A stretch of 32,000 bases of DNA from an uncultured Chloroflexia bacterium (GTDB taxonomy: Bacteria; Chloroflexota; Ktedonobacteria; Ktedonobacterales; JADMIN01). The position numbers and the translations under genes were made by a program. The number at the start of each line of letters is the position of its first letter. Position 1 is the first letter of the stretch. A model generated the notes under the pieces. The model saw nothing but the letters and a program-made list of their open reading frames with translations, ran no database searches and had not been told where the DNA came from. Positions 6,210 through 29,017 of the stretch are shown one piece after another. The stretch lies in contig CAVRAI010000003.1 in NCBI GenBank assembly GCA_963718915.1, positions 690,001 through 722,000 on the forward strand. Direction: 5' to 3'.

Positions 6210-6342
6210 GCTGGTTAGAAGACAAACAGTCTGAGAAAAGTCTGAGAAAAGCCGGAGGCATCGTGCCATAGATGCCTCTTGCGGAACATAAGCAGGCGCG
6301 CGAGAGCTACGCGCGCCTCGCCAGATGATTGCGAGGCCTGAG

Positions 6343-6774
6343 ATGGGACTTGGCCCGGTCGAATATGTCATGATTGAGTTTCCAGGCGCTACCGAGATTG
6401 GCGACATCGAGCCAGCGCTTCAGGAACTGGTGTCCTCAGGGACTGTCCGCATTATCGACCTGATGTTTATCAAGAAAGATGCGGAGGGGCACATCCAGGC
6501 GCTGGAGGTTGACCAACTCGACAGCGTGAGCGCTCACCGGTATGAGGAGCTGGACGCCGAGGTCGACGACCTGGTGAATATGGAAGATATCGAAATCGCT
6601 GCGGCGGAACTATTGCCTGATAGCATCGCGGTGGTGCTGGTCTGGGAGGATGCCTGGGCCAAACGGTTCGGGGAGACCATGCGGGCCGCGGGCGGGCGTG
6701 TGGTGGAAATCGAGCGGATTCCTAGCGAGGTGGTCGAAGCGGCTATGAGGGCAAGCGTGGGAGCGGATGCGTAG
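6343..6774 (+). CDS. soluble DUF1269-related protein (DUF6325-like by memory)
   Basis: MGLGPVEYVMIEFPG...GDIEPALQELVSSGTVRIIDLMFIKKDAEG. ATG at 6343 with GAGG 6 nt upstream (track start 6325). The acidic C-terminal half includes WEDAWAKRF. Confidence 0.7.
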   Translation: MGLGPVEYVMIEFPGATEIGDIEPALQELVSSGTVRIIDLMFIKKDAEGHIQALEVDQLDSVSAHRYEELDAEVDDLVNMEDIEIAAAELLPDSIAVVLVWEDAWAKRFGETMRAAGGRVVEIERIPSEVVEAAMRASVGADA

Positions 6775-6808
6775 AGCCTGAACTGCGGTAGAGAGGACGA
6801 ACCCGATT

Positions 6809-7222
6809 ATGATGCGACGAGGTGGAGCACTGGGACGGCGCGGCCCTGGCCTGCTTGGAACGATGGCGCGAACCGCGGTGATCGCGGGGACGGCCACGGC
6901 GGTCTCCAAAGGGGTGAGTGGTTCAATGAATCAACGCGCCGCACAACAACAGACGGCGCAGCAACAGCAACAGCAGGCGGCATTTGACGCGGGCTACCAG
7001 CAGGCGCAGACGCAAGAACAGGCGCAACAACAGCAACAGCAACAGCAGCAGATGCAGGCGGCTCAGGCTCAGGCTGGGGCGCCACAGGCCGCTAGCCCGG
7101 CCTCGACTACCGATGCCATGATCGCGCAATTGCAACAACTGGCCGAGCTACAGAAGCTGGGGATTCTGACGCCAGACGAATTCGCCCAGCAGAAGGCGAG
7201 GGTTTTAGGCGGCGCGAACTAA
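6809..7222 (+). CDS. SHOCT-domain protein with a long poly-Q/A linker
   Basis: The C-terminus MIAQLQQLAELQKLGILTPDEFAQQKARVLG is a typical SHOCT motif. The N-terminus is RRGPGLLGTMARTAVIAGTATAVS. The middle is Q-rich (QQQQQQQQQM) and encoded by CAG/CAA runs at about 6950-7060. Confidence 0.8.
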   Translation: MMRRGGALGRRGPGLLGTMARTAVIAGTATAVSKGVSGSMNQRAAQQQTAQQQQQQAAFDAGYQQAQTQEQAQQQQQQQQQMQAAQAQAGAPQAASPASTTDAMIAQLQQLAELQKLGILTPDEFAQQKARVLGGAN

Positions 7223-7292
7223 AAGTATCCAGATGATACTGATTTGGGATAAGGTGTTGTGCTATTACAACGCCGTAGCATGACGCAGGTTT

Positions 7293-7559
7293 ACAAAATA
7301 GGAGGGGCACGCCAGGAGGCAGGCGACTGAAGTCGCGCCTGAAGGGCCTGCCTGCTGCGCCTGCTGCGCACGCTCCGCCACAAAACCCGCCTGCGCGGGT
7401 TGCAGAGACGCACTCCCAACGCGTGTCGCGCGCGTGTCGCGCCGGGCAGCGTCTGGCTCTGGGGAGTCCGCGACGGCGGACTTGGTGGCCGCAGGCCCTT
7501 CAGGCGCGGTTTGAACCGCCCGCGCCCCTCCGCGCATGGCCCTCGTACTTTCTAAAACC
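7293..7559 (-). repeat. GC-rich MITE-like repeat, element A, copy 1 (inverted relative to copy 2)
   Basis: The reverse complement aligns with 13809-14075. Identical blocks include 37 nt (gggcctgcggccaccaagtccgccgtcgcggactccc), 25 nt (gcgcgggcggttcaaaccgcgcctg) and 28 nt (aggcccttcaggcgcgacttcagtcgcc). An internal long-range inverted repeat pairs cgcgcctgaagggcctgc (7334-7351) with gcaggcccttcaggcgcg (7490-7507). Confidence 0.85.
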
Positions 7560-7628
7560 ACATCAGGCTGCGGCGAATGGGGCGGAGCGGCGGGAAATTC
7601 GCCGTAGCGTTCACGCTACGGCCTGCCT
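7553..7628 (+). repeat. hairpin-bearing repeat, element B, copy 1 (abuts element A)
   Basis: It shares a 36-nt identical block (ggaaattcgccgtagcgttcacgctacggcctgcct) plus cggcgaatgggg with 15216-15283. It contains a perfect hairpin gccgtagcg-ttca-cgctacggc (7601-7622). A degenerate related motif lies at about 7661-7687, and a truncated inverted one at about 7262-7290. Confidence 0.8.
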
Positions 7629-7788
7629 CGCCCGCCACGACGTGTGGGGTTCGGACGAAAAAGTGAACGTTCATTACGCTACGGCCAGCATCCTCAAACA
7701 CCAACCCCAGATGTGGATACTGCGAAAAGCGGGGGCGTGATAGTCTGTCATAATGGCTATCATACCCCCGCTCGGTGATTCGGGCTTT

Positions 7789-9108: not shown

Positions 9109-9704
9109 ACCACACCTCCCGGGGTTCATTAGTTGAGGGTTCGTTCAGCGCGCACTGTCTGCGGTAAACGCGCGCGGGAGACGCATCACGGCGCTCAATG
9201 AGGATGCGCCCGACGGTTTCTCCTGCTGTGCAGCCAGGGCCTGTCGCTCCAGCGTGTGTAACGTCAACTGAAGGGAGGCTCCTGCCGCACTGCTCACTCT
9301 AAAACGAGAATCCCTGCGCCGCATGCAACAAAGGTTGCAAAAATGAAGTGGCAAGTTTTGTGAGAATACCCCTTATGGTGATGCGGTTTTGTATGATAAA
9401 GTACAGATTGCAGCCTATTCGTCGTAGGAAAACAGCCTGTTTGTATGTGTTAACAGGATCAACATACAACCATCTTAACAACTTGCTTCCTGTATCTGTG
9501 CATCGCGCTCTCAGGCCAGAAGATAGCAAATGGTATACATGGGGAAATGCTCGACAGGCGGGTGTGATCGCACAAGGCGTTGTAGGGGTGTAGGTGTGTA
9601 GGTGTATGCAGGAGGAAGACTGTGTATCAAGCGCCGCGAAGGTGTAGCTGATAGTTGCGGCCTGCGTGCGTTTGACGTTCCCCGATAACAGCGCGATAAC
9701 AGCG

Positions 9705-9749
9705 TGGCATATCTGGCGTATCTGGCATCTTTGGCATCTTTGGCATCTT
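9705..9749. repeat. 9-bp tandem repeat x5 (tggcatatc/tggcgtatc/tggcatctt x3) in the kinase-regulator divergent intergenic region
   Basis: Read directly from the sequence. It is immediately preceded by an 11-bp x2 duplication (cgataacagcg, 9683-9704) and, further upstream, by an 8-bp x3 array (gtaggggt/gtaggtgt, 9582-9605). Confidence 0.9.
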
Positions 9750-9951
9750 TAGCAAGAGTCAGGGGCGGTGCGGGCGGACGTGCGTCTGGGTATTGGCGAT
9801 CCCGCGAGGCCGAGCGGAGGGATCATTTGGTGTGCGAGAGCGGCTTCATCGAACGCTTGCGGTTGGAAGAGGCTCACACACGCGCTCAAATGAGTTCGGT
9901 ACGCGGAACAGGGATCATCGCGACAGTGCCCCACCACGAAAGAGGCGAACG

Positions 9952-11294: not shown

Positions 11295-13640
11295 ATGGGT
11301 ATCCCTCTCGTCACAGTTCGGCATGGGCTTGTGAGCGTGTCGATGGACATTGGCTCCGCTGAATGGTTCACCTTGCTCGATAGGATCGACATTTTTGCCG
11401 TTGAGGCACACGATATCTCGTTCCTCGTGCGACGCATGCATGATGGAGCGTTCGCGCTCTGGCTGGCCTTTTGCTCGATTGACAATGACCCACGCTGTGT
11501 TGTGGTGGGTTCGGCGTCGGAACTCACGCGAGAGCGGCTGCTGACGGCAGCGCACCAGCTCGCGAATTGGGATACGGTCACTCCCGAATTTCAGGTAGAG
11601 CTGGAGCGAGAAAGCGCGCCTATGCCGCAGCTGTCTGTCACCAGCCCGGATCTCCTCGTGACCAAGTTAGAGATGCCTACCGTCACCAGCAGGACGCTGG
11701 TTCGCACACAAGCCATTGACCGCATGGCGCGCGCGCTGGATTATCCTCTCACCGTCGTCAACTCGCCTTCTGGCTATGGCAAGACGACCCTCGTGGCAGC
11801 ATGGGCGAGCGAGACCCCTGCGCGGGTGGCTTGGTTGCTGCTGGATGAGAACGACAACGACCCGGTGCGCTTCTCCACCCATCTGCTCGCCGCTCTCGAC
11901 CGGGTTGTCCCTGGTCTGCTTACCGCGGTACTACCCTATGTGCAGAACGCGCAGACGCATCTCTCTGATGGATCGCTCATCTCCCGGCTCATTAATTCAC
12001 TGACCTCGACTGATGGTCACATTGCCCTCGTGCTCGATGGGTACCATACGATCAGTCAAGACAATGCGGTGATCCAGAACGCGATGAACTACTTCATCGA
12101 AAACCTGCCACCCCACGTCCATGTCATCGTCCTGACTCGTACCAGCGTCCCCTTGCGCCTCCCATGGTTGCGCGTTGCCGGGCGGCTGTTTGAATTGCGC
12201 ATTGATGACCTGCGCTTCACGGAAGACGAAGCGCGCGTATTTCTGGAGCGACGGACAGGCTCGGACGTAGCGCCTGAGGTCAGCGCGCGCATTCACCGAC
12301 GCACTGAGGGCTGGGTGGCTGGGCTGCAGCTTGCCGCGTTCGCGCTCGAAGATTCGCGCACTCCCGCGGAAAATGTGGCAGACCTCCTGAGTGAGAATCG
12401 CAATGTCGTCGATTTCATCGCGGAGGAGGTGCTCACGCGACTGCCGCATGCGGTCAGCGAGAATGTCTTGTGGATGGCCGCACTGGACCGGTTCAACGTG
12501 GCGCTCTGCGACGCGCTGCCAGGGATCGTGGACAGCCAGACGACGCTGGAGACCCTCGAGCGCGAAAACGCATTCCTCGTCCCGGTCGATGACCCCTCCG
12601 GCTGGTACAGGTTCCATAGACTCTTCCGGGAGGTGCTCTGGAAGCGGCTTCAACGGACGCACAAAGAAGAGTTGGCCGAGATGCATCGCCAGGTGAGCGC
12701 CTGGTATGAAGCCCATGGCATGACGCGCGATGCGGTTCACTATGCGTTGCATGCGAGCGATGAGCACGCGGTTCTGCGCATCGTTCGTGAACTTGCCAAT
12801 CGTGTCTTCGAGAGCGGATCCTCCCCGTCCGACCTCCGGGCACTGGCGCAATGCCTTGATCTTCTGCCCGCGGACATGATACAGAAGCATCCGCAGCTCT
12901 GTCTGATTGAAGCGCAGATGTTCGTACAATCAGGCGATCTCGACGAGGCCGAACTGTGGCTGGAAGCCGCCGATACGCATATCTCTCAGGATATGACAGT
13001 GGATGGCGAGACAGCTGCATCAGGCGACCATATGCGTATGCGGGACGAGATCATGCAGGTTCGGGGCATCATCGCGCGACTGCGCAAGGGAAGCCCTCCC
13101 GCCGATGGCTGGCAGTCAGCCCTGATGCACGCGCCGCACGCATCGCATTCATCGCATGCGTGGGAGCCTCAAGCCGCCATGTTGTCCACACTGTCCATAT
13201 CGTCCGTATCGTCCGTGCCACCGCGCGCGCAACGCATGCCCCAGCGTACCGATGCGCACCATTCCTCCACCGTTCCTGGACCTCTGGTCATTTACGAGCG
13301 AGTCACCGCGCGCGAAAAGGAGGTTCTGGTGCTGCTCGCCAAAGGCGAACCCAATCAGGTGATCGCTGACGATCTCACCATCGCCGTCGCGACGGTCAAG
13401 CGCCATCTGAGCAACCTCTACCGCAAGTTACAGGTGGATAACCGGACTCAGGCGGTGTGGCGAGCCTGGACCCTTGGCCTGCTCGACGACCTTCCTGCCG
13501 ATGGCGCGGATACATTGGCGCCTCATAGCGACCGGACTAAGCCGGACGAGCGCGGTGCGGGTATGAGTATGCCTCGGTGGAATAACTTCCCCAACAGCAA
13601 TGGCAACGGCAATCTTCCCCCTGGCATCACGCCGGGATAG
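11295..13640 (+). CDS. MalT/LAL-type STAND ATPase transcriptional regulator with a C-terminal LuxR HTH and an extra N-terminal domain
   Basis: Walker A VVNSPSGYGKTTLV and Walker B ALVLDGYH. A long helical/TPR-like middle region follows. C-terminal HTH LTAREKEVLVLLAKGEPNQVIADDLTIAVATVKRHLSNLYRKLQV. ATG at 11295 with GGAGGAG (11281-11287) upstream; the track start is 11130. Confidence 0.9.
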   Translation: MGIPLVTVRHGLVSVSMDIGSAEWFTLLDRIDIFAVEAHDISFLVRRMHDGAFALWLAFCSIDNDPRCVVVGSASELTRERLLTAAHQLANWDTVTPEFQVELERESAPMPQLSVTSPDLLVTKLEMPTVTSRTLVRTQAIDRMARALDYPLTVVNSPSGYGKTTLVAAWASETPARVAWLLLDENDNDPVRFSTHLLAALDRVVPGLLTAVLPYVQNAQTHLSDGSLISRLINSLTSTDGHIALVLDGYHTISQDNAVIQNAMNYFIENLPPHVHVIVLTRTSVPLRLPWLRVAGRLFELRIDDLRFTEDEARVFLERRTGSDVAPEVSARIHRRTEGWVAGLQLAAFALEDSRTPAENVADLLSENRNVVDFIAEEVLTRLPHAVSENVLWMAALDRFNVALCDALPGIVDSQTTLETLERENAFLVPVDDPSGWYRFHRLFREVLWKRLQRTHKEELAEMHRQVSAWYEAHGMTRDAVHYALHASDEHAVLRIVRELANRVFESGSSPSDLRALAQCLDLLPADMIQKHPQLCLIEAQMFVQSGDLDEAELWLEAADTHISQDMTVDGETAASGDHMRMRDEIMQVRGIIARLRKGSPPADGWQSALMHAPHASHSSHAWEPQAAMLSTLSISSVSSVPPRAQRMPQRTDAHHSSTVPGPLVIYERVTAREKEVLVLLAKGEPNQVIADDLTIAVATVKRHLSNLYRKLQVDNRTQAVWRAWTLGLLDDLPADGADTLAPHSDRTKPDERGAGMSMPRWNNFPNSNGNGNLPPGITPG

Positions 13641-13808
13641 CCTGGGCGCCGCCCGCTGGCTATCCCGGTTGGCGCGGAATCTCTCGCAGCGTTTCTCGCA
13701 TCGCCAGGCTGAGCCAATGGCAGGCTCCGTACGTCAGGTCACGAGCATGAGTCATACCAATTCCGGCTGGGTTGTTGTATGTGGGGAGCGTGCCGGAAGC
13801 CCAATGTA

Positions 13809-14075
13809 GTTTTAGAAAGCACCAGGGACACGGGCTGGGCAGCGCGGGCGGTTCAAACCGCGCCTGTGGGGCCTGCGGCCACCAAGTCCGCCGTCGCGGA
13901 CTCCCAGACCGTGTCCCAACGCGCTCCCCGTTGGCGAGCGGTTCTGGGCAACCCGCGCAGGCGGGTGTCGTGGCGGAGCAGGTGCAGCAGGCGGAGCAGG
14001 CGCAGCAGGCGAGGCGCAGCAGGCGAGGCCCTTCAGGCGCGACTTCAGTCGCCAGCCGCCGTGGCGGTCCGTCGT
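13809..14075 (+). repeat. GC-rich MITE-like repeat, element A, copy 2
   Basis: See copy 1 (7293-7559) for the alignment. This copy carries its own internal short tandem arrays (gcagcaggcg-type units at about 13975-14030). Confidence 0.85.
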
Positions 14076-14078
14076 AAT

Positions 14079-15210
14079 TAACGTGAGTTCGGGATAACTA
14101 CAGGGTAACATGAACGGGCATCTCCTGCTCTTGGACGAGGGAGGGTTTCTTGGGTTGGCGGCAGTAGGCGACCAATCCGGCGAAGAGATGCACGAGGAAG
14201 TTGAGCGGGCTGCGGTGGCGGGTATGCTCAATCTGGCAGATGTTCTTGAGTTGGTCGTTGATGCTCTCAATGATCGCCCGTTTGCGGAGCAGGAGTTTGT
14301 CGGCCAGGGGCATGAGCACATGGCGCATATTTTTGCGCAGTTTGGTAATGAGGCGCAGGCGCTGAGTGAGCAAGAGCTGCTCAGCGAGCGCTGCTCAGCG
14401 AGCGCTGCTCAGCGAGCGCCGCCGAGATGTAGCCTTTGGTAGCCTTTGTCGGCGAAGAGGCGGCCGAAGAGGCGACCGAAGAGGCGGACCGAAGAGGCGG
14501 CCGAAGAGGCGATGCGTGCCACGCACCAAGCGTGGCACAGGCTGACGGTCATCGACGTTGCCGGGGGAAGACAAAACGCCAGCAGTTCGCCGCGGTCGTT
14601 GACCACCAGATGCAGTTTGAAGCCGAAGAACCAGCCCACCGAGGTCTTGCCCCGCCGGGCATCCACGCGAAAGACCCGATGCTGGTGGATGCGCGCCGGG
14701 TGACAGACCGCGAGGGCCGTCGAGTCAATGAAGCTGACACGAAGCTGACACCGGTGCAGGTTCCACATTGCGTGCGCAGGTAGACGGCGAGCGGAAGGAG
14801 GACTCGCGGCAGCAATTCGATGCAGCAATTCGATGCAGCGATTCGATGCAGCGATTGTAGCTCACGAGGTGCGGAAACTCCCGGCGCAGATGCACCTGCA
14901 CATACTCAGTATAGAACGCTTTGTATAGAACGCTTTGAAGGTGCGGTAGCCCGACTGCTGCAAGAGGATCGCGATGGTCATAATTTCACTGGGATGCAGC
15001 CGGGTCGCGCGTCGACGACGGCGCGTCCCCGAGACGAGCAACTCGCGCTCCCACCACGGCTCAAAGACCTGCCAGAACGCATCCACGGAGCAGTACAAGG
15101 CGTCCAGGTCGAGTATACTCATGACATGCCTCCATTCAGGGACTGACGGGGTGTCGTAAACCGCATCATATCTCTGTTGAAGGCATTTCGCTTATCCCGA
15201 ACTCACGTTA
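14079..15210 (-). mobile_element. IS982-family insertion sequence (about 1.13 kb) with perfect 19-bp terminal inverted repeats and a disrupted transposase
   Basis: IRs are taacgtgagttcgggataa (14079-14097) and its exact reverse complement (15192-15210). The element sits between element A copy 2 and element B copy 2. I see no convincing target-site duplication. Confidence 0.85.
14098..15122 (-). pseudogene. IS982-family transposase pseudogene, split into 3 ORFs
   Basis: Fragments are 14862..15122 ([25 protein letters not shown]), 14409..14828 ([16 protein letters not shown]...GKTSVGWFFGFKLHLVVNDRGELL...LFADKGY) and 14098..14373 ([52 protein letters not shown]). These match the IS982 transposase motifs as I remember them. 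The frame breaks coincide with the tandem duplications described in the findings. Confidence 0.85.
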
Positions 15211-15215
15211 TTTAG

Positions 15216-15283
15216 TAAAACGACATAAGGCCCCGGCGAATGGGGATGGAAATTCGCCGTAGCGTTCACGCTACGGCCTGCCT
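15216..15283 (+). repeat. hairpin-bearing repeat, element B, copy 2
   Basis: Same orientation as copy 1. Hairpin gccgtagcg-ttca-cgctacggc at 15256-15277. It starts 6 nt after the IS982 right end. Confidence 0.8.
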
Positions 15284-15504
15284 TCCGTATGACAACAGTC
15301 CAACCGGATGGAGTATCAGGAGGATAGCGCGACGATTTGCTCAGGCGCGGATGCTCATGTGGCTTTCTACAACTTTTGGCCCATGCGTCTGACGCGGTTG
15401 TATAGTCTCGTTAGGTTCTAGATGGTGTAGCGCGTAGCGTTGGATGGAGGTGAGCGCGAGAGTAGCGCATATCGCGATGGCGCAGTAGTAGGAGGTGAAC
15501 CGTT

Positions 15505-18410: not shown

Positions 18411-18678
18411 TTTGGTATAGCTTGAGCCATAGCTTGGCCATAGCGCACCAGACAGGCAGGCGCTTCGGAATCACCCCGGATGCGGTGTAGACCGTATTCG
18501 GGGTATTTTTTACCCTCCGCCGCGCGCGCTCGCGTGTGATGAACGGCCAGTTTTTCCTATGGCTTGCTTGATCACAATGGTATCCTATCCGAAAGGGTGA
18601 GTTATCACCTCACCCCTGGGGCAGGTATCGCACGGAATCATCATAAGTAATCCTGGCCGACAAGACGGAGTGACGCAA

Positions 18679-19248: not shown

Positions 19249-19275
19249 CCCGCATAGGCGCCGTATACACGCCGT

Positions 19276-20496: not shown

Positions 20497-20948
20497 CTGG
20501 CCCCCTCCTTACCCTTCGGGCAGACCCCAGGGGCGAACCTGAATGTTGCCCTGTACGCGGCCCGCGCCGATAGAGCTTCCGCTCACGATCCAGTCATGTA
20601 TGCGCTCCATGCCAGACTCATGCCAGACTCATGTCAGGTCACGCCCAATCTACTTCACACATGCGGGATTTATACAAGACCCACGCCCTGGCGCGGAAGA
20701 AAAATGAGCCTGCATACATCCTTTCCTTGCCCCTGGCAGAGGGGACATATCGAAATTCGCCAACGAATCGAGAAGGGTTGCAACTTTCGGCGCATGCGCC
20801 CCATGTCGATGTGCTGCTACACTCCTCATCCTGGGGATAGCACGTCAAGATGGGAGGCTCTGGAGAGGCGGCGGCTTGATTCCTCGCCTGAGCCAGCCTT
20901 CACAAGACGGTGCGCCACATCAGCGACGGCGGAGAAGGAGGTTGCCAG

Positions 20949-21614
20949 ATGACAGGACCCATGGGTGAACTTGGCCGTATGCGTCTGATGATAGTCGATG
21001 ACCATGTGGTTTTGCGGCGTGGTGTCGTCGCCTCGCTGTCGGACTTTGAAGACATCGAGGTGGTAGCCGAGGCAAACAGTGGGGAAGATGCGCTGGTGTT
21101 GTGCCAGACGATTTCGGTGGATGTCGTGCTGATGGATCTGATGATGCCGCCAGGAATGAGCGGGGTGGAGGCCATTCAGGTGTTGCATGACACCTACCCT
21201 GATCTGCAGTTGATCGCCTTTACCAGCTATCGCGATGAGTCGCTGGTGGAGGAGGCGCTGCGAGCGGGAGCGATTAGCTATCTGCTGAAGGATGTATCGC
21301 CTGAGGATCTCGCCAAGGCAATTCGGCTGGCTGGCCAGGGTATGCCTGTTCTCGCGCCCGCAGCGACACAATCCCTGGTTCATGCGCTGGCGCAACGACA
21401 TCCCAAGTTGGGGTATGATCTGACCGATCGTGAGCGGCAGGTGCTTGCCCTGCTGACTGAAGGCCTTTCCAACCACGATATTGCCGAGCGTCTGGTCATC
21501 ACGCCTGCCACAGTGAAGTTCCACACGCGTAGCATTCGCCACAAACTTGGCACCACAAGCCGAACCGAGACCGCTATTCTCGCGTTACAGAACCATCTCA
21601 TCCCGGTTGGATGA
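20949..21614 (+). CDS. NarL/FixJ-family response regulator (REC + LuxR-type HTH)
   Basis: ATG at 20949 with AAGGAGG upstream; the track start is 20910. Receiver region: RLMIVDDHVVLRRGV...VDVVLMDLMMP...AFTSY. HTH: LTDRERQVLALLTEGLSNHDIAERLVITPATVKFHTRSIRHKLG. Confidence 0.92.
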   Translation: MTGPMGELGRMRLMIVDDHVVLRRGVVASLSDFEDIEVVAEANSGEDALVLCQTISVDVVLMDLMMPPGMSGVEAIQVLHDTYPDLQLIAFTSYRDESLVEEALRAGAISYLLKDVSPEDLAKAIRLAGQGMPVLAPAATQSLVHALAQRHPKLGYDLTDRERQVLALLTEGLSNHDIAERLVITPATVKFHTRSIRHKLGTTSRTETAILALQNHLIPVG

Positions 21615-21653
21615 GCGGGAGCTGTTCGTCCGCATCAGCGCCTGCGACAAGGA

Positions 21654-21680
21654 GCCTGCGCCCTCGTGGCGCAGGCCTTT
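21654..21680 (+). terminator. GC-rich hairpin 40 nt after the response-regulator stop (possible intrinsic terminator)
   Basis: gcctgcgcc (21654-21662), loop ctcgt, ggcgcaggc (21668-21676), then ctttc. The stem is a perfect 9 bp, but the U-tract is weak. Confidence 0.35.
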
Positions 21681-22027
21681 CAGTATGGCAGCGCATCACC
21701 GCTATAGCTGGGTTTGTACCTGTCCGCAAGGGGTGTCTGCAACTAGCCTCCAATACACGCCTTGCATCTGTGGTTCTCGCGCGATCTGTGAGATACACTT
21801 CCAAATCAATCAGTATTGAGGACAGGGATTTCTGCTGGGCTGTGTTCATCCTACACGCGACATCAGCCTCGTTTGTCCAGCCGCCACAGACCGAACTGCC
21901 CGTCACTGGATATCTCCAACCTCTGAATGGACGGGTGAGGTTCACCGGACTCAACGGCTATTGGATACGTCGCCTGAGTGCCTGCGTACAACAGAGTCGC
22001 CAGATGACTCAGGTAGGAGAAATCTGC

Positions 22028-22363
22028 ATGGACACCAGCGCGCACAGCGATGCCGAGTATTGGGAGCAGGAGATTGGGCGTCTCCATGCACGCATCGATG
22101 ATTTCGAGGCGCGTTTCGAGGCTGAGTATCATATCCTGCGTGGCATCGTCGATACGCAGATCGCGGAAATGCGGGCGATGGTGCGGAAGGTGGAGAGCGA
22201 CGTCGCCGCTATCCGCCCAGACGCCTATGTGCAACAAGTCGCCGACCAGGTCGCGGAGCTGAAGCTCAAGGGTGATCAGGCCTACGAACTGCTCCAGACG
22301 CGGCTGGTCGCGGACGCCTCGCGGGATACTGATCTGCGTGACGTAGAGCCTCCGGCGTCATAG
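22028..22363 (+). CDS. small coiled-coil hypothetical protein
   Basis: ATG at 22028 is preceded by AGGAGAAATCTGC. It encodes 111 aa rich in heptad-like E/R/A/I sequence (EQEIGRLHARIDDFEARFEAEYHILRGIVDTQIAEMRAMVRKVE). The upstream part of track ORF 21611..22363 looks non-coding. Confidence 0.5.
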   Translation: MDTSAHSDAEYWEQEIGRLHARIDDFEARFEAEYHILRGIVDTQIAEMRAMVRKVESDVAAIRPDAYVQQVADQVAELKLKGDQAYELLQTRLVADASRDTDLRDVEPPAS

Positions 22364-22521
22364 CCACTCACCCCGCGGCGAGGTCGATCCCACCCCTCGG
22401 GCGGGGGCGATGACTTGCTGTGGAAACGCCACCTGGGCACAGTGCTATGGCGAAGTGTCGCGACTATACTCTGCTCACGTGCGCCGGATACGGGAGATAA
22501 CCGCGTGCAGGCCTGAATCTT

Positions 22522-22596
22522 GCGTGATGGGCGTGATGGGCGTGATGGGCGCGATGGGCGCGATGGGCGCGATGTGCGTGGTGATGTGCGCGATGT
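22522..22596. repeat. 9-bp minisatellite, about 8 units (gcgtgatgg x3, gcgcgatgg x2, gcgcgatgt variants)
   Basis: Read directly from the sequence. It is intergenic, about 100 nt upstream of the start at 22693. The long ORFs through it (RPSRPS... and MGVMGVMG...) are repeat artefacts. Confidence 0.9.
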
Positions 22597-22692
22597 GCGA
22601 GTCGAGCACGTTGAGCGAGATGTCAGGGTAGAGGCAATCCGCAAGGCGTCACACTGGGTTGAACGTCGAGCAATTGAAGAGGAGAGGTGGAG

Positions 22693-22938
22693 ATGGGTAC
22701 GCTACGAATCATGTCTCGACGCGGCGATGATCGCGTGCAATGGGATACCAGTCGCGTGCTAGATGGTGAGATGGACGCAGTAGCGGCCGTCCGCGAAGCC
22801 GAACGCATCTTCGAGCAGCAGCGGGCGAAGGGGGCCACCGCGTTCAAAGTCACGAAGGGCCAGGCAGCCGTTCGTATCGATCAGTTCGACCCTGAGGCTG
22901 AGCAGATCATGATCGTCCCACGTGTGGTGGGAGGCTAG
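22693..22938 (+). CDS. small conserved-looking hypothetical protein (81 aa) ending in Gly-Gly
   Basis: ATG at 22693 with GGAGAGG 5 nt upstream. Translation: MGTLRIMSRRGDDRVQWDTS...EAERIFEQQRAKGATAFKVTKGQAAVRIDQFDPEAEQIMIVPRVVGG, then stop. Confidence 0.6.
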   Translation: MGTLRIMSRRGDDRVQWDTSRVLDGEMDAVAAVREAERIFEQQRAKGATAFKVTKGQAAVRIDQFDPEAEQIMIVPRVVGG

Positions 22939-23218
22939 CGACCGTTCGCATCGATCGGTGCGCTCTGCGTATATACCCCTAAATCGAAAATGCCGCCGCT
23001 GGCTCAGCGCATCTCTACGTCTGCCCTCGAAGATTTGCCTGGGCCGGTAGCCCTGTCGCCCAGGCTGATTCTCTGGTTGATTCCGCTGAATACGACGCGC
23101 GGGCGGGTTCTACTGTGCAATCCAAAAAAACATGGCGTAGGGGAATGTATGGCGTCGGAGAATCGATACTCAGCTCGATGCCGGTCTCGATGCCGGGCAG
23201 GATACGACTGGGCGCCCC

Positions 23219-23896
23219 GTGGTTGATACCGGCATTGACGCTTCGCGTATCTTCCGCGGTGAGCGTCGGCTTCCGGTCACGCTGGCGCTGACGCTCCTGG
23301 TGGCCATGGCGCTGCCGTTTTTTTCGCCCGAGAAACTCAGTCTCGGCCCGAAGTGGCTGCTCGTGGTTTTGTTGGGGGTATTCCTGATCGCTACGCTGGT
23401 GGCTGGCCCCGACCTCGTGAAGCGCCGGGCGACAGTGCTGCGCGTGATGGCGTTTGGCGTCGTGGTGGTGCTCGTCTTGAAGGACAGTTGGAGCACCACC
23501 AATCTCCTCGTCGACCTCATCAAAGGTGGCCCAGAAACCAATAACCCGACCGTGCTCCTGATCACAGGGGGAGGGGTCTGGGTAGGCAATAACATCGTGT
23601 TCGCCATGCTCTATTGGGAACTCGATAGCGGCGGCCCGGTGGAACGCGCCCGCCGTACGGTGAAATATCCAGATTTCGCTTTCCCCGGCCAGCTGGCCCC
23701 AGACATTGTGCCTCCAGGCTGGAAGCCCGTTTTCATTGACTATTTGTATCTGGGCTTCACGAATGCGCTGGCGTTCAGCCCCACCGATGTCATGCCGCTT
23801 ACGCACTGGGCGAAGCTCACAATGGCGCTCCAGTCGATCATTTCCGTAGCAATCCTCAGTCTGGTGGTCGCCAGGGCCGTCAATATCCTGACCTAG
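23219..23896 (+). CDS. DUF1345-like integral membrane protein
   Basis: GERRLPVTLALTLLVAMALPFFSPEKLSLGPKWLLVVL... and the C-terminal YLYLGFTNALAFSPTDVMPLTHWAKLTMALQSIISVAILSLVVARAVNIL match my memory of DUF1345. The GTG start has no clear SD, so the start is uncertain. The frame is open back to 23141 and contains a 12-bp x2 duplication (23174-23197). Confidence 0.65.
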   Translation: MVDTGIDASRIFRGERRLPVTLALTLLVAMALPFFSPEKLSLGPKWLLVVLLGVFLIATLVAGPDLVKRRATVLRVMAFGVVVVLVLKDSWSTTNLLVDLIKGGPETNNPTVLLITGGGVWVGNNIVFAMLYWELDSGGPVERARRTVKYPDFAFPGQLAPDIVPPGWKPVFIDYLYLGFTNALAFSPTDVMPLTHWAKLTMALQSIISVAILSLVVARAVNILT

Positions 23897-24198
23897 CTCG
23901 GTCCTGTTGCGGCAAGCTGGTTAGGCCTCTATGCCTGCGGACTGGCTGGTGGCAGATCACCATCCCCGCACAATGCGCAGGCCGCACTCACCCATAGGCC
24001 GGGTAGACAGCCCCCCGCTGGAGGGGCATACGACTAGTCACCGAGACCGCCCACGCGGTCGGCGTCTGAAACGGCGTCACGCGCTACGATGCAGCGGGGG
24101 CTACTGGCGCATACAAACACGGTAGCCGTCAGTTCGCATGTTCGTAATTCAGATACACAGCATGGGCTGGCTCAGGCCAGGAAAGGACCAACCAAGCG

Positions 24199-26550
24199 AT
24201 GACGAAGCCATTCAAGGGGACGATCAACGTCGACATCCGCGACTCGCAGCCCGACTGGGAACCCTTCGAGCCGCCCAAAGCGTCGGAGAGAGCGCCGAAT
24301 GTCCTCTACATCGTGCTGGATGATGTCGGGTTTTCTGCCATCGGTTGCTATGGCGGTCCGGTCGAGACGCCCAACATCGACCGCATCGCCAATAATGGCA
24401 TCCGCTACACCCAGTTCCACACCACGGCGCTCTGCTCGCCGACCCGCTCATGCCTGCTGACCGGGCGCAACCACACCCGCAACAGCATGGCCTGTATCAC
24501 CGAGGCGGCAATTGGCTTCCCCAACGCCAGCGGCACCATCCCGCCTGAAAATGGCATGCTCTCGGAGATTTTGGGCGAACAGGGCTGGAACACCTATATC
24601 GTTGGCAAGTGGCATCTCTGCCCGACCGATGAGATGAACCTCGCCTCCACCCGGCGCAACTGGCCCTCAGGCCGCGGCTTCGAGCGCTTCTATGGGTTTC
24701 TGGGCGCGGAGACGAACCAGTGGTATCCCGAACTGGTCTATGACAACCACCCAGTTGATCCGCCCATGACGCCGGAGGAGGGCTACCATTTCACCGAGGA
24801 CGTCACCAACAAGGCAATCGAGTTCATCCAGGACGCCAAGGCGGTCGCTCCCGACAAGCCGTTCTTCCTCTACTATGCCCCCGGCGCCTGCCACGCGCCG
24901 CATCAGGCGCCGCGCGAATGGATCGATAAATACAAGGGCCGCTTCGACATGGGCTACGAGGCCATGCGGACACAAACCCTCGCCCGCCAGAAAGAACTGG
25001 GCCTCATCCCGCAGGATACAGAACTGCCCCCCATCAACCCGATTGGCACGCCGCAGACGCGCACCGGGCCAGACGGCAAGCCGTTCCCGGAGACCGATTA
25101 CACGCGCCCGTGGGACTCGCTTTCAGCGGACGAGAAGCGGCTCTTCGCGCGGATGGCGGAAGTCTATGCCGGATTCCTCGCCCATGCCGACTATCACATC
25201 GGGCGGCTGCTCAGCTACCTGGAAGAGACCAACCAGTTGGAGAATACGCTGTTGATACTGGTCTCCGACAATGGCGCGAGTGGCGAGGGTGGGCCAAATG
25301 GCTCGGTGAACGAGAACAAACTGTTCAACGGTATTCCCGACGACATTGAAGCCAACCTGGCGATGCTGGATGACCTGGGCAGCCCGAAGACCTACAACCA
25401 TTATCCCAATGGCTGGGCAATGGCGTTCAACACTCCCTTCAAGATGTGGAAGCGCTACGAGTTCAATGGCGGCACCAGCGATCCGTGTATCGTTTCCTGG
25501 CCAGCGGGCATCAAGGTGAAAGGCCAGATCCGCGAGCAGTATCACCATGCCATCGATCTGGTTCCCACGGTCCTCGACGTGCTGGGAGTGGAGGCGCCGA
25601 CGACGATCAAGGGGCATACGCAGAGCCGTTTCGACGGCGTGAGTATGCGCTACAGCTTTGAGGATGCCAAGGCGCCGACCGCTCGGCCTACGCAGTTCTA
25701 CAGCATGCTGGGTTCGCGGGGCATCTGGCATGACGGCTGGAAGGCGATCACCACGCACCCCACCATTAGCGGCTGGAGCCACTTCAACGAGGATACCTGG
25801 GAGCTTTACCATACCGATGTCGACCGCTCGGAGGTCCACAATCTGGCGGCAGAGCAACCGGATAAGCTGCGCCAGTTGATCGGCGCGTGGTTCGCGGAGG
25901 CGGGCGCAAATGGCGCCTTCCCGCTGGACGACCGCTCGGCGCTAGAGATCTTCAATACGCCGCGCCCACAACTCACCAAACCCCAGAACCGCTATCGCTA
26001 CTATCCCGATACTGCTCTGGTGCCCGGTGTCCAGGCGGTCAATACGCGCAACCGCTCGTTCACCATCGGCGCCGTCGTGGACATTCCCGCCCCCGGCGCG
26101 CAGGGTGTGCTCTTCGCGTACGGGTCGCGCTTCGGTGGCCACGCGCTCTACGTCAAGGACAACCGGCTGCGCTATGTCAACAATTTCGTCGGCATCGAGG
26201 AGCAGAAGATCGTCGCCGATGTGGACCTGCCGACCGGCAACGACCTGATTCTCTCGGCGTCGTTCGACAAGGATGGCGAGGTGACGCCTGGGACGGCGAC
26301 GGGGATACTCTCGCTCTACATCGGGGACAAAAAGGTTGGTGAGGGGCGGATTAAGACACAGCCCGGCGACTTCGGCCTGGGGACTGGGGTGACCATTGGC
26401 CGGAGTGCGCGGCAGGTGGCCGACGACTACCCCGGTCAGCGGCCCTGGCGGTTTACTGGAGGCACGCTCAAGATGGTCGCGGTCGATGTGAGCGGCGAGC
26501 CGTATGTGGACCTCGAGCGCGCAGCCGTCGCCATGATTGCGCGTGAATAG
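24199..26550 (+). CDS. arylsulfatase (type I sulfatase, Cys-type formylglycine motif), large AtsA-like form
   Basis: PNVLYIVLDDVGFS, the signature TTALCSPTRSCLLTGRNH (C-x-P-x-R), GKWHLCP, LVSDNGAS, and a long C-terminal beta-rich extension. 783 aa. Confidence 0.93.
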   Translation: MTKPFKGTINVDIRDSQPDWEPFEPPKASERAPNVLYIVLDDVGFSAIGCYGGPVETPNIDRIANNGIRYTQFHTTALCSPTRSCLLTGRNHTRNSMACITEAAIGFPNASGTIPPENGMLSEILGEQGWNTYIVGKWHLCPTDEMNLASTRRNWPSGRGFERFYGFLGAETNQWYPELVYDNHPVDPPMTPEEGYHFTEDVTNKAIEFIQDAKAVAPDKPFFLYYAPGACHAPHQAPREWIDKYKGRFDMGYEAMRTQTLARQKELGLIPQDTELPPINPIGTPQTRTGPDGKPFPETDYTRPWDSLSADEKRLFARMAEVYAGFLAHADYHIGRLLSYLEETNQLENTLLILVSDNGASGEGGPNGSVNENKLFNGIPDDIEANLAMLDDLGSPKTYNHYPNGWAMAFNTPFKMWKRYEFNGGTSDPCIVSWPAGIKVKGQIREQYHHAIDLVPTVLDVLGVEAPTTIKGHTQSRFDGVSMRYSFEDAKAPTARPTQFYSMLGSRGIWHDGWKAITTHPTISGWSHFNEDTWELYHTDVDRSEVHNLAAEQPDKLRQLIGAWFAEAGANGAFPLDDRSALEIFNTPRPQLTKPQNRYRYYPDTALVPGVQAVNTRNRSFTIGAVVDIPAPGAQGVLFAYGSRFGGHALYVKDNRLRYVNNFVGIEEQKIVADVDLPTGNDLILSASFDKDGEVTPGTATGILSLYIGDKKVGEGRIKTQPGDFGLGTGVTIGRSARQVADDYPGQRPWRFTGGTLKMVAVDVSGEPYVDLERAAVAMIARE

Positions 26551-26593
26551 GCTTCACCAGCGCTCGAAAGCCTGAGTCAGCCGAAGTGATTGA

Positions 26594-26655
26594 AGGGAGC
26601 GGGAAGCAGTGGCGATACCTGAGATCGCCATGGCCGGGCCGCTCCCTCTTTCTGC
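26594..26655 (+). terminator. nested stem-loop after the sulfatase gene (possible terminator)
   Basis: Outer arms agggagcgg (26594-26602) and ccgctccct (26639-26647). Inner hairpin ggcgat-acctgag-atcgcc. Followed by ctttct. Confidence 0.3.
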
Positions 26656-26734
26656 GAGGCAACGACCTGGCGTGTGTGGGTAGCGTGTCTCGCCTGGCTA
26701 CGCCGTAAGTCGTAACTCGCAAGAGGATCAGGAT

Positions 26735-27529
26735 ATGCCTGCCAACGACATCTTTCATCAGTTGAACGAATTCGTGGTTGCGGCGCTTATGTTCCTCATT
26801 CTCATCGGCGCTGGTGAGGTCGGATACCTCCTGGCTCGACGCCGACGCGCGGGCAGGAAAAACGAGACGGCTGCCGAAACCCACGAGCACCTGAATGAGA
26901 TTCAGACGGCGATCTTTGCGGTGCTCGGACTCTTGCTCGCGTTCACATTCGCTATGGCTGTTTCACGCTTTGATGCGCGCAAGCAGGCGCTGGTGGACGA
27001 GACCGACGCGATTGGGACAGCCTACCTCCGCGTCCAGTTGCTCCCACCGGGGCAGCAGCCGGCGGCAGCGGCGGTCTTCCGCACCTATGTGGACGCCAGA
27101 TTAAATTCGGCGCGTCCCTACTGGTATCTGGATGCGCGGCTGAAAAACGAGACGAACGAGCTACAGCAGCAATTGTGGACGCAAGGCACAGATGCTGCGA
27201 ACCAGGATCCGCACGCAGTCACCACCAGCCTCTATATTCAGTCGCTGAATGACATGTTCGACGCCCAGAGCGCTCGGGATGCGTCCCGGCTGAACGAGCT
27301 TCCCACGAGCGCGATCTATCTGCTTCTCGTCATCTCTATTCTCTCAACGGGGGTGCTTGGATATCGGGCAGGGCTGGGAGGTAGACGGTCGATCGTTGGG
27401 GCGGTGCTTCTCGCGCTCGTCATCACGCTCGTCGTCGGGATCATTATCGACCTCGACCAGTCCTATCAGGGTCTTATTACGATCAGCCAGCAGGCCCTGA
27501 TCCAGCTCAGACAGAGCATGGGGCCATAA
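26735..27529 (+). CDS. DUF4239-type membrane protein
   Basis: IQTAIFAVLGLLLAFTFAMAVSRFDARKQALVDETDAIGTAYLRVQLLP is the family core as I remember it. Two further C-terminal TM helices are present. Confidence 0.75.
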   Translation: MPANDIFHQLNEFVVAALMFLILIGAGEVGYLLARRRRAGRKNETAAETHEHLNEIQTAIFAVLGLLLAFTFAMAVSRFDARKQALVDETDAIGTAYLRVQLLPPGQQPAAAAVFRTYVDARLNSARPYWYLDARLKNETNELQQQLWTQGTDAANQDPHAVTTSLYIQSLNDMFDAQSARDASRLNELPTSAIYLLLVISILSTGVLGYRAGLGGRRSIVGAVLLALVITLVVGIIIDLDQSYQGLITISQQALIQLRQSMGP

Positions 27530-27636
27530 GGGGCCATAATTCAGCTCAATTGCAAGTGTACGGTAGCGAGGTATGCGCATCCAATCCAGACAAACGCATG
27601 ACCTAGCATGACCTATCCCAGAACAGGAGCGTCGCC

Positions 27637-28464
27637 ATGAACAATGATCCCCATGCAAACGGCCACATACAACCACCATCGGTCTCGCCAGCCGAGACGA
27701 CCAGAGCCAGCCAATCGGGCGACGACCGATTCGACACTACCGCGGCGTTGCTGCGTCTGCTCATGGGTGGCGCGCTCCTGGGGACGCGGGAGCTACGGGT
27801 GCGGCTGGAGCGATGGCAGCAGACCATCCCCAATCCCGCCTCGAGCCAGGCAGTGGCGCCACGAACCGCCTCCCCATCTGACCAGCTCCGTTACACACTC
27901 ATGGGGATGATGTTTGAAACGGAGTCGCGCATGCGGCGGAGATTCTCCACCATGAGGAGGCGTTTCGCACGAGTCTCGCACGAGGCCAATACCTTCTATA
28001 CAACCGTCATGTCGGACATGCGTTATACTCCGCTCGATCCGCTACGCGCGCGTTTCGAAGAAATGATCTACCGCGCGACGATGGCGGTGGATCGGTGGGC
28101 GGATCGGGGACGGATGGAGGAGCAACAAAGCCGCTCCATGGCGCAGGAGGCTGTGGTGAGCGTGATTGATGAACTGCTCGACTACATGGCGCGGAATCCT
28201 GAGGTTCGCCATTTGATCGAGCAGCAGGGTATGAGCATGGCTGAAACCGCCGTGGATGAGGTGCGCGAGCGGACGGCGACGGCGGATATGTGGATCGAGC
28301 GGATTGCGCGGAGCCTGCTCCACCGCCCGGCGAGCGAGAACCCCGCGCCATCGGCGTCATCGGCGTCATCGGCGTCATCGGTGGCTATCTCATCGCCAGG
28401 GACAACAAGCCCGGTAGCGACGACGGTGGAGACGGATACGTCCCTCACCCGGCGATCCAGGTGA
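27637..28464 (+). CDS. hypothetical protein (helical, R/E/M-rich), upstream partner of the RDD gene
   Basis: AGGAG lies 7 nt upstream of the ATG. 275 aa. It contains an in-frame 9-bp x~4 array (28349-28384) encoding SASSASSASS. Its stop lies inside the SD-like AGGTGA that precedes the next gene. Confidence 0.6.
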   Translation: MNNDPHANGHIQPPSVSPAETTRASQSGDDRFDTTAALLRLLMGGALLGTRELRVRLERWQQTIPNPASSQAVAPRTASPSDQLRYTLMGMMFETESRMRRRFSTMRRRFARVSHEANTFYTTVMSDMRYTPLDPLRARFEEMIYRATMAVDRWADRGRMEEQQSRSMAQEAVVSVIDELLDYMARNPEVRHLIEQQGMSMAETAVDEVRERTATADMWIERIARSLLHRPASENPAPSASSASSASSVAISSPGTTSPVATTVETDTSLTRRSR

Positions 28465-28471
28465 TACCGCT

Positions 28472-29017
28472 ATGGACAGGATGACGATTCACAAGTCACA
28501 CACACACACACACACACATGCGCACGCGGGCTTTATTAGCCGCGCCATTGCCTTTGTACTCGACATTGTCGTGATGAGCGTGGCCGTGCTGGCGGCTGTC
28601 GCGCTCTTGCAGGCGCTGCTGGGCTTCTTCACCCTGTATGGGTTGGTCGGGCAACGGGTTGTCCAGTCCAGCCCGTTCCGCGATATCGTCGTCGTGGTGA
28701 TCGCGCTCATCGGCGTCGGAGTGGCCATTGGCTATCCGGTCTTCTTCTGGGTGTTGCTTGGCCAGACCCCAGGCAAGTTACTCATGGGCGTGCGCATCTC
28801 GCGGACGAACGGCCAACCGCTGACGGTCAGGCGCGCGCTGCTGCGCTACCTGGGGTACTGGCTCTCGGCGATACCGCTCGGCCTGGGGTTCTTCTGGGTG
28901 CTGGTGGACGATCACCGCCAGTGCTGGCACGATAAGCTCGCCGACACCGTTGTGATCTATGACTCGCGGTCGCCTGTCCCGCTCCCCTCAGCATCCGCGC
29001 CGCGCTCTGCTCTATAG
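28472..29017 (+). CDS. RDD-family membrane protein with an N-terminal His/Thr tail encoded by (CA)11
   Basis: RDD hallmarks: FISRAIAFVLDIVV (first Arg), three TM helices, GKLLMGVRISR, and WHDKLADTVVIY (final Asp). No in-frame start exists downstream of the CA tract that would keep the first conserved Arg, so the tract is coding. Confidence 0.85.
   Translation: MDRMTIHKSHTHTHTHAHAGFISRAIAFVLDIVVMSVAVLAAVALLQALLGFFTLYGLVGQRVVQSSPFRDIVVVVIALIGVGVAIGYPVFFWVLLGQTPGKLLMGVRISRTNGQPLTVRRALLRYLGYWLSAIPLGLGFFWVLVDDHRQCWHDKLADTVVIYDSRSPVPLPSASAPRSAL
28497..28518. repeat. (CA)11 dinucleotide microsatellite inside the RDD gene
   Basis: cacacacacacacacacacaca read directly from the sequence. It is translated as HTHTHTH. 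Confidence 0.95.

Follow-up and report, generated by a model that had tools for sequence, protein, structure and literature searches.

Short tandem duplications of 8-14 bp in Ktedonobacterales DNA: a clade-specific, apparently insertion-biased mutational signature

Introduction

Short tandem duplications arise in several described systems. Bacterial variable number tandem repeats (VNTRs) are used for strain typing by multiple-locus VNTR analysis (MLVA), and classical loci of this kind are few per genome and come in many unit sizes. In mutants of flap nucleases, such as yeast rad27 (FEN1) and Escherichia coli polA, short tandem duplications dominate the spontaneous insertions, with bounding direct repeats of 3-12 bp and sizes from 5 to more than 100 bp, whereas mycobacterial non-homologous end joining (NHEJ) can fill in both overhangs of a break before blunt ligation, the known cases being experimental and having overhangs of 2-4 nt. 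In the pyrE mutation spectra of Sulfolobus acidocaldarius, tandem duplications form a class of the spontaneous large insertions and deletions (indels), and large indels make up about 10-15% of the mutations (PMC7785828). Here we analyze a 32,000-nucleotide stretch of DNA, called the window throughout, from an uncultured soil bacterium of the Ktedonobacterales (Chloroflexota; contig CAVRAI010000003.1 of assembly GCA_963718915.1, positions 690,001 to 722,000), in which exact head-to-tail duplications with units of 8-14 bp are spread over intergenic DNA, gene ends and a dead insertion sequence (IS) of the IS982 family.

An earlier note on this DNA, made from its letters alone, had attributed these arrays to a high-rate duplication process filtered by selection. 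The present comparison with control genomes, relatives and near-identical strains supports that reading through the excess density of the arrays, their relation to the coding frame and their variation between strains. Rather than forming a functional element, the arrays probably record a mutation process whose activity in this group of Ktedonobacterales is unusually high, and together they constitute an unusual, clade-specific and apparently insertion-biased mutational signature. In the searchable literature we found no earlier description of a clade-wide signature combining a 10-30-fold enrichment, a hard limit of 8-14 bp and births free of microhomology, and searches on Ku/LigD in Chloroflexi or Ktedonobacter, on tandem duplication in Ktedonobacteria and on bacterial short tandem duplications in general retrieved nothing relevant.

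Results

Arrays were detected over the whole window with Tandem Repeats Finder (TRF) and with our own exact-match finder for head-to-tail duplications. Exact tandem duplications with units of at least 8 bp numbered 22, whereas 30 dinucleotide-preserving shuffles had 0.77 on average and never more than 3. Because real genomes exceed shuffles in duplication count, real-genome controls were added, consisting of 80 loci (1.6 Mb) obtained by scanning species-representative genomes with the arylsulfatase of the window, 77 of them from high-G+C genomes of the Actinobacteria type. The density of exact arrays was 0.69/kb in the window compared to 0.12/kb in the controls (median 0.09, maximum 0.40; Poisson p = 3e-10), a 5.6-fold excess that reached about 30-fold for units of 10-14 bp whose length is not a multiple of three (non-3n, as opposed to 3n; 0.41/kb against 0.013/kb, p = 1e-15). 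The density is thus well above that of comparable high-G+C genomes, the opposite of what would have refuted the earlier interpretation, and 50 kb of E. coli K-12 contained no exact duplication with units of at least 8 bp. Overall, the window and several of its relatives carry 10-30 times more exact 8-14 bp duplications than comparable genomes.

The closest syntenic relative, L001 (loci of the comparison set are numbered with an L), is a Ktedonobacterales metagenome-assembled genome that gave the best arylsulfatase match and is syntenic with positions 12733-32000 of the window at about 83% nucleotide identity. Relatives at 83-95% identity showed the same signature, each with private arrays of its own. 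Six loci (L001, L082, L097, L100, L101, and L104) carried 0.23-0.50 arrays/kb, with 0.09-0.20/kb for non-3n units of 10-14 bp against the 0.013/kb of the controls, and the range for 8-14 bp arrays in the window and these six loci together was 0.23-0.62/kb. In two of the loci, both from 'contig_N' assemblies of the ENA, the arylsulfatase gene is split over three frames (L100 6662-9015 and L104 6649-8846), and these are either real pseudogenes or homopolymer errors of long reads; both loci entered the array counts and were kept out of the arguments on reading frame.

Unit length followed coding status, as had been claimed from the sequence. Gene calls, curated for the window and for six related loci, comprised 115.9 kb of coding and 27.6 kb of non-coding DNA, with 26 non-3n and 7 3n arrays in the non-coding part, two of each kind at gene edges, and 5 non-3n and 9 3n arrays within coding sequences (CDSs). 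For units of at least 9 bp, the counts were 21 non-3n and 7 3n in non-coding DNA versus 1 and 9 in CDSs (Fisher p = 5e-4), and array density was 10-fold lower in CDSs than in non-coding DNA (0.12/kb vs. 1.2/kb). The share of 3n units among the non-coding arrays was 21-25%, in keeping with the 2 in 7 to be expected without any frame preference. Four of the five non-3n arrays in CDSs were 8-mers of a size expected by chance, and the remaining one, a 10-mer in L100, was the sole exception of at least 9 bp to the further claim that such arrays are not common in intact conserved genes. This exact 10 bp x2 repeat (L100 6737-6756) lies in the sulfatase N-terminus and was rejected as a frame-breaking duplication, since the length of the region is the same as in homologues; neighbouring sequence became identical here with no insertion taking place. 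Within supported CDSs of the window, the exact arrays (13198 and 28349) had 3n units only, and imperfect 3n arrays occurred at 2337, 8580, 10341, and 13127, besides CAG/CAA runs. Low-scoring imperfect non-3n matches of TRF were also located inside CDSs (4730, 6171, 13257, and 28089), of which those at 13257 and 28089 show no length difference in L001 and are therefore not recent insertions.

The size of the units was sharply limited. In 27.2 kb of annotated non-coding DNA, the observed number of duplications (shuffled expectation in brackets) was 393 (317) for units of 3 bp, 104 (83) for 4 bp, 32 (23) for 5 bp, 6 (6.0) for 6 bp, 3 (1.6) for 7 bp, 6 (0.45) for 8 bp, 7 (0.1) for 9 bp, 4 (~0) for 10 bp, 9 (~0) for 11 bp, 1 (~0) for 12 bp, 6 (~0) for 13 bp, 4 (~0) for 14 bp, 0 (0) for 15-17 bp and 1 (0) for 18 bp, so that units of 8-14 bp together amounted to 37 observed against 0.6 expected. 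The same 8-14 bp spectrum was obtained in 129 kb of non-redundant Ktedonobacterales DNA; the controls were without it and had an excess only at the coding-related sizes of 9 and 15 bp.

Microhomology was measured from the length of the matching run, considering that a duplication of a p-bp unit between direct repeats of m bp leaves 2p + m matching bases. Among nine births that could be polarised, m was 0, 0, 0, 0, 3, 0, 0, 1, and 2, and simulated random duplications had a mean of 0.79; zero extra bases were found for the births at 17650, 27520, 27596, 14429, and 14730 and at L001 3376. Among 44 two-copy arrays, m was 0 in 18 and 1 in 8. The check for flanking microhomology proposed in the earlier note thus gave a divided answer, births having no more of it than chance and two-copy arrays having a tail of m of at least 3, which is weighed in the Discussion. 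No motif, composition bias or end-base rule of the kind that a nuclease or primase would leave was visible around 30 duplications. The placement of the duplications may be location-agnostic, as had been proposed, which would fit the lack of motif bias and the lack of a 3n preference among non-coding arrays. The sharp 8-14 bp limit and the missing microhomology, neither of which the earlier note had remarked on, are the most informative features of the arrays.

Comparisons with relatives revealed that the arrays are not invariant, being absent or shorter in L001 and in L081 and polymorphic among six near-identical strains. The duplications at 17650 and 27520 (arrays are named by their first position; Table 1) are single copy in L001, which also lacks the 22522 array (63-bp gap), the extra copies at 28345 and the entire segment holding the 27596 duplication (35-bp gap). 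In turn, L001 has private duplications of 11 bp, located 25 bp downstream of the 17650 site, and of 10 bp, abutting the 27520 site. The arrays at 20608 and 23174 are of equal length in L001 with diverged copies, and are therefore old.

A closer comparison was possible with L081, a 3-kb Logan contig about 95% identical to the window (127 substitutions in 2865 aligned bases), from which all indels of at least 3 bp were tandem copy-number changes. The window was longer by 10 bp at 27596 and by 27 bp in the 9-bp CDS array at 28345, both single copy in L081, and its (CA)n run in the RDD CDS was 18 bp (3n) longer, the L001 version being different and interrupted; L081 was longer by 3 bp (GGC). The 27520 duplication is common to the window and L081, where one copy carries a substitution, and is single copy in relatives more remote than L001 as well, and it is therefore older than the split between the window and L081. 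Just 3' of the stop of the bestrophin-like gene (window ~27540-27552), adjoining this duplication, a 10-bp unit, TTTGGCTCAA, occurs in 1 to ~4 copies depending on the species (L001 13322-13344 and orthologous sites in L091, L082, L088, and L097), and this site is a long-lived hot spot of independent events.

At the population level, six contigs of a sister species, obtained from different samples and 99.6-99.9% identical (L082-L087), had 46 single-nucleotide polymorphism (SNP) columns and 7 indel polymorphisms, of which 6 were copy-number changes of units of 6, 8, 8 (x4), 9, 12, and 13 bp. One of these, a polymorphic 12-bp array, is the orthologue of the window array at 23174 and lies in frame in the DUF1345 N-terminus. 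Compared with L001 and L082, the DUF1345-family gene of the window itself carries one inserted nucleotide behind codon 6, with the orthologous ATG out of frame and the GTG at 23219 as the first start, and either its N-terminus is truncated or the gene is decaying. Counting indels of at least 8 bp in pairwise alignments, the Ktedonobacterales had 7 tandem and 5 other events per 1880 substitutions, several of the latter being partial units, compared to 0 tandem and 2 other events per 4900 substitutions in the control pairs.

The dead IS982 element provides a neutral record of the same events. It has the features of its family, namely a DDE transposase of about 290-300 aa with PF01609 and PF13612, terminal inverted repeats and a size of about 1 kb. 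Inverted repeats similar to its own were found in none of the other loci, and the flanking sequence of L001 is too diverged to reveal the empty site or the target-site duplication of the element. Deleting the extra copies of its six arrays (126 bp) restores a 1012-bp element with a minus-strand open reading frame (ORF) that is open save for one frameshift of 1 nt, in the G5 run at 14563-14567. The repaired protein matched intact Ktedonobacterales IS982 transposases (PF01609, PF13612) at 90% in the best local alignment with 97-100% coverage, and at 85-88% identity over the full, colinear alignment. Only two other length differences were observed: close to the C-terminus, 6 bp are imperfectly duplicated, and an insertion of 9 bp (14512-14526) adds GTH and forms a perfect hairpin with a 6-bp stem (TGCGTG-C-CACGCA, 14513-14525). 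The latter looks like an inverted templated insertion produced by template switching at a snap-back or quasi-palindrome, and differs in signature from the tandem duplications. Nearly all of the indel change in this kilobase stems from about ten added units of 10-14 bp, and each event of at least 6 bp is an insertion. Four of the six arrays arose de novo with 0-2 bp of microhomology.

All arrays of the earlier list were recovered with coordinates within 1 nt; that list had omitted the arrays at 13972-14039 and 7350-7369 (Table 1). Its observation that some duplications involve the stop codon of the upstream gene was confirmed for the first units at 17650 and 27520, as was the start of another array shortly after a stop. 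No unit recurs at another locus, each being confined to its own array, and a dispersed repeat family of the short tandemly repeated repetitive (STRR) or repetitive extragenic palindromic (REP) type was rejected on this basis.

Table 1. Tandem arrays and the IS982 remnant in the 32-kb window.
Feature	Coordinates	Strand	Context
11 bp x2.2 exact duplication, unit AGTCTGAGAAA	6228-6251	none	Intergenic, 19 nt past the stop of the DUF1269 gene
CAG/CAA-type 6/9/12/21-bp in-frame repeats	6936-7075	+	SHOCT-domain CDS
9 bp x2.2 exact duplication	7350-7369	none	Gap separating convergent genes, without supported gene
11 bp x2.1 exact duplication, unit CGCGTGTCGCG	7420-7442	none	Same convergent-gene gap as the 7350 array
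8 bp x3.1 array	9581-9605	none	Upstream of response-regulator gene
11 bp x2 exact duplication	9683-9704	none	Zero microhomology
9 bp x5.6 array	9705-9754	none	Directly abuts the 9683-9704 duplication
Two 9-bp in-frame arrays	13127-13156 and 13193-13216	+	AAA/LuxR regulator CDS
Nested 9/14/18-bp arrays	13972-14039	none	Immediately outside the left end of the IS982 remnant
IS982-family element, pseudogene, 19-bp terminal inverted repeats	14079-15216	-	Disrupted by six tandem arrays plus a single 1-nt frameshift
14 bp x3.1 array, 28 bp extra	14376-14419	none	IS982 ORF
10 bp x2 array, 10 bp extra	14429-14448	none	IS982 ORF, without microhomology
12/13 bp x4.8 array, 37 bp extra	14453-14511	none	IS982 ORF
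11 bp x2 array, 11 bp extra	14730-14751	none	IS982 ORF, without microhomology
13 bp x3.7 array, 26 bp extra	14809-14856	none	IS982 ORF
14 bp x2.1 array, 14 bp extra	14909-14937	none	IS982 ORF
12 bp x2 duplication	17650-17673	none	Unit 1 opens with the TAA stop of the MASE1/PAS histidine-kinase gene (ORF 15505-17652)
12 bp x2.4 imperfect array, one indel	18417-18444	none	Starts 7 nt past the stop of the DUF7144 gene at 18410
11 bp x2.4-2.7 array	20608-20637	none	Between divergent kinase and regulator genes
9 bp array, x6.6 at 22522-22580 plus degenerate copies to ~22596 (~8 total)	22522-22596	none	Intergenic
12 bp x1.9 array, 23/24 bases matching	23174-23197	none	Upstream of the GTG at 23219, DUF1345-family gene
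10 bp x2 duplication	27520-27539	none	TAA stop of the bestrophin-like gene (ORF 26735-27529) closes unit 1
10 bp x2 duplication	27596-27615	none	Private to the window
9 bp x4.1 in-frame array	28345-28384	+	CDS of the 275-aa protein
(CA)11 encoding HTHTHTH	28497-28518	+	RDD-family CDS

Some further repeats were recorded beside these arrays. A 23-bp imperfect repeat (1.9 copies, 80%) at 22369-22411, directly after the stop at 22363, keeps its sequence and length in L001, unlike the other arrays, and may be a structured or regulatory element instead of a recent duplication. An imperfect 10-bp x1.9 repeat at 6171-6189 falls within the last 40 nt of the DUF1269 CDS and may be a real event that is tolerated, as a non-3n duplication so near the stop alters the C-terminal tail only. 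The dinucleotide run (CA)11 in the RDD frame could serve as a frameshift switch.

The genes of the window supported by Pfam include those for Band_7 (SPFH), trypsin-like protease, DUF1269, DUF6325, SHOCT, DUF7144, DUF1345, sulfatase, bestrophin-like, RDD and PRC-barrel proteins, and the regulators with such support are three histidine kinases, two LuxR-type response regulators and one AAA/LuxR regulator. For the 275-aa hypothetical protein (27637-28464) and the DUF7144 protein, named homologues came from Ktedonobacterales only. A scan of the window found no Rfam families and no tRNA genes, and a megablast search of the window against a plasmid database gave no match. At 29873-31822, some 1.95 kb of DNA with a reduced G+C content (0.51-0.55) is missing from the syntenic L001, contains two ORFs without Pfam match (30099-30779 on the plus strand and 30829-31437 on the minus strand) and has imperfect inverted repeats (29940-29953 and 31787-31800); this block may be a mobile insertion. 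Additionally, L104 carries a fragmented IS605 OrfB (TnpB-type) gene at 3441-4338.

Discussion

The arrays can be accounted for by a process in three steps. At birth, an exact second copy of 8-14 bp, or roughly a turn of the helix, would be placed head to tail with the first, essentially anywhere in the sequence, without any need for flanking microhomology and without leaving filler. The two identical copies of 8-14 bp would then feed replication slippage or misaligned pairing, so that copies could be gained and lost quickly and the array would behave in populations as a VNTR. Finally, purifying selection would rid genes of events that break the frame (non-3n) and of most that keep it, and arrays would therefore pile up between genes, in the dead IS and over stop codons, which the first copy preserves, with only 3n units left in coding DNA. 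The births exist and have the properties described above, and the comparison with relatives demonstrates both the copy-number change and the filtering.

Concerning the birth step, we tentatively propose that a staggered double-strand break with 5' overhangs of 8-14 nt is filled in and its blunt ends are rejoined. This route is favoured because births lack microhomology and because their size has a hard limit, and we rate it as the most likely one, above ordinary polymerase slippage. It shares its geometry and chemistry with the target-site duplications of transposons. The genome of Ktedonobacter racemifer encodes 601 transposases, with COG0675 as its most frequent COG (PMC3236041). Such numbers of transposases in Ktedonobacteria make a staggered cut by a transposase or another nuclease plausible, and the prevalence of COG0675 suggests that RNA-guided nucleases making staggered cuts are abundant in the class. 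A more specific version of this proposal, in which the duplications would be scars of staggered breaks made by abundant transposases or transposon-associated nucleases, through insertion and clean excision or aborted target cleavage, and rejoined without a template, is rather unlikely.

Several observations weigh against a duplication process of this kind, or limit what can be read from the window. Two of the six IS982 arrays bear the marks of classical slippage, as the 14453 array grew from an ancestral in-frame 12-bp repeat (LFG-LFG in intact homologues) and the 14809 array was seeded by a pre-existing 9-bp direct repeat with 13-bp spacing. Among the 44 two-copy arrays, 15 (34%) have m of at least 3, compared to 7% in the null. 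This tail and the two arrays grown from older repeats therefore indicate a mixed process with a slippage-type minority. Moreover, about 40% of the exact arrays of the window sit in or beside the single IS982 remnant, which inflates the window density, and compared with the rest of its genome the window may be unusually dense in arrays. The size spectrum is based on about 60 events, and the comparison of arrays per kb of annotated non-coding DNA (1.2/kb vs. a rough 0.16/kb in the controls) is approximate, as the coding mask of the controls was a crude one built from ORFs and third-position G+C (GC3). The signature is also uneven across the order, with 0.13/kb in L103 and no arrays in the 8-14 bp range in L105, and two other Chloroflexota loci, L002 and L003, show it weakly or not at all; it thus characterises a sub-clade and not the entire order. 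Besides, we infer the enzymology of the birth step from its products.

Two alternatives deserve detailed consideration. In the first, the duplications would be transposon footprints, that is, paired target-site duplications left after cut-and-paste insertion of an IS, clean excision and end joining, and lengthened later by slippage. Such footprints would have two copies at birth, a precise junction, no microhomology and no filler, as found here, and the 8-14 bp limit overlaps the sizes of the target-site duplications of IS4/IS1-type elements (ISfinder families), although a single element family would span a narrower range. Ktedonobacteria are rich in transposases, as the K. racemifer genome illustrates, and IS remnants are present in the window and in L104 and L105, but the array-rich loci L001, L082, and L097 have no transposase genes, and arrays outnumber IS insertions by about 6 to 1 between the window and L001. 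No occupied allele, with an IS between the unit copies, was seen in the pairwise and population alignments, a small sample in which this absence is weak evidence. The dead IS982 bears more directly on the question: four de novo duplications within 1 kb would require repeated nested insertion and excision, and they argue for a diffuse process instead. To our knowledge, bacterial end joining of excision sites is undocumented, which also counts against footprints. Overall, we consider this origin doubtful.

The second alternative links the duplications to replication, either through polymerase slippage or through failed processing of 5' flaps of the rad27/FEN1 or polA 5'-nuclease type, in cells with a weak flap nuclease or few single-strand exonucleases. 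The two IS982 arrays grown from direct repeats and the tail of m of at least 3 are what it would predict, copy-number changes of existing arrays are classical slippage, and the size limit could in principle reflect flaps or primers about 10-12 nt long. The births themselves are less readily explained. Slippage and flap ligation need paired ends, and births without microhomology therefore count against them: most polarised births have 0-1 bp, like the random-duplication null, and eight of the nine have at most 2 bp, a bounding direct repeat of at least 3 bp being found for the 14453 and 14809 arrays only. The spectra known for slippage and flap-type events are wide and weighted towards short distances, whereas the present one lacks any excess at 6-7 bp and ends abruptly at 14 bp. 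As the source of the births, a replication-linked mechanism thus seems improbable to us.

Functional repeats, either helically phased binding sites for the neighbouring LuxR-type regulators or phase-variation switches, are highly improbable. The arrays at 9581-9754 and 20608 do lie upstream of response-regulator genes, copies repeated every 10-11 bp or so would share one face of the helix, and (CA)11 is inside a CDS; against this, each unit is different, copy number differs among near-identical strains, there is no Rfam match, and relatives having the same genes lack the arrays. A contingency locus would have its repeat in the CDS or promoter of one gene and switch its expression, whereas these arrays are found across and past stops, between convergent genes and past their ends, and six times in a dead transposase gene, those in CDSs being 3n. 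Regulatory repeats were consequently rejected, as the arrays are lineage-private and present in dead DNA. Sequencing or assembly errors of a long-read assembly are the least probable explanation, next to negligible, and were rejected as well: the source contig is very long (910 kb) and the split genes of some related 'contig_N' assemblies are possible long-read errors, but arrays of this type are also present in short-read assemblies made independently from other samples (L001, k141; L081, Logan; L082-L087, NCBI, ENA, and Logan), the 27520 duplication is shared with L081 and substituted there in one copy, and errors would not yield the coding-frame pattern.

A mutation process that duplicates short segments through staggered breaks would have consequences beyond this locus, as it would represent a distinct route of DNA breakage or repair in an under-studied phylum. 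In the dead IS982, the one clearly neutral stretch of the window, almost all indels are insertions, contrary to the accepted deletional bias of bacteria, and in this one pseudogene examined the duplications constitute nearly all of the damage. Such an insertion bias bears on the very large genomes of Ktedonobacteria. If the duplications are indeed scars of breaks, they would be a bacterial counterpart of eukaryotic transposon footprints, and the resulting insertion-biased indel spectrum could contribute to the size of these genomes and of their intergenic regions. From a practical point of view, with 6 array polymorphisms per 46 SNPs, the arrays are highly polymorphic strain markers, ready for use in soil metagenomics of this group.

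Comparison with known systems

The nearest prokaryotic precedent in a spontaneous mutation spectrum is that of S. acidocaldarius, which shares the presence of tandem duplications with the present group; there, they are a minority class, for which neither genome-wide accumulation nor a size limit has been described. Eukaryotic target-site duplications and excision footprints share the precise short direct duplication of about one helical turn without microhomology. The present arrays differ in having no intervening element, no observed occupied allele and a size range beyond that of one family; our literature search on excision footprints in bacterial genomes returned eukaryotic cases only, and such footprints are not an established bacterial feature.

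Flap-nuclease mutants likewise accumulate short tandem duplications, and the two IS982 arrays that arose between older repeats resemble theirs, whereas most births described here have 0-1 bp of microhomology and fall within the 8-14 bp limit. Fill-in by Ku/LigD at breaks with 5' overhangs has in common with our arrays the exact tandem duplication of the overhang without microhomology, and differs from them in that breaks with overhangs of 8-14 nt, and their source, are hypothetical here.

Finally, the VNTRs used for MLVA typing of Mycobacterium, Yersinia and Burkholderia share with the Ktedonobacterales arrays locus-specific head-to-tail units whose copy number varies between strains and which are in frame within genes, and the present arrays indeed consist of such units at fixed loci with copy numbers that vary between close strains. 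What sets them apart from VNTRs is a density 10-30 times that of comparable genomes, a predominance of newborn two-copy duplications and a hard limit of 8-14 bp.

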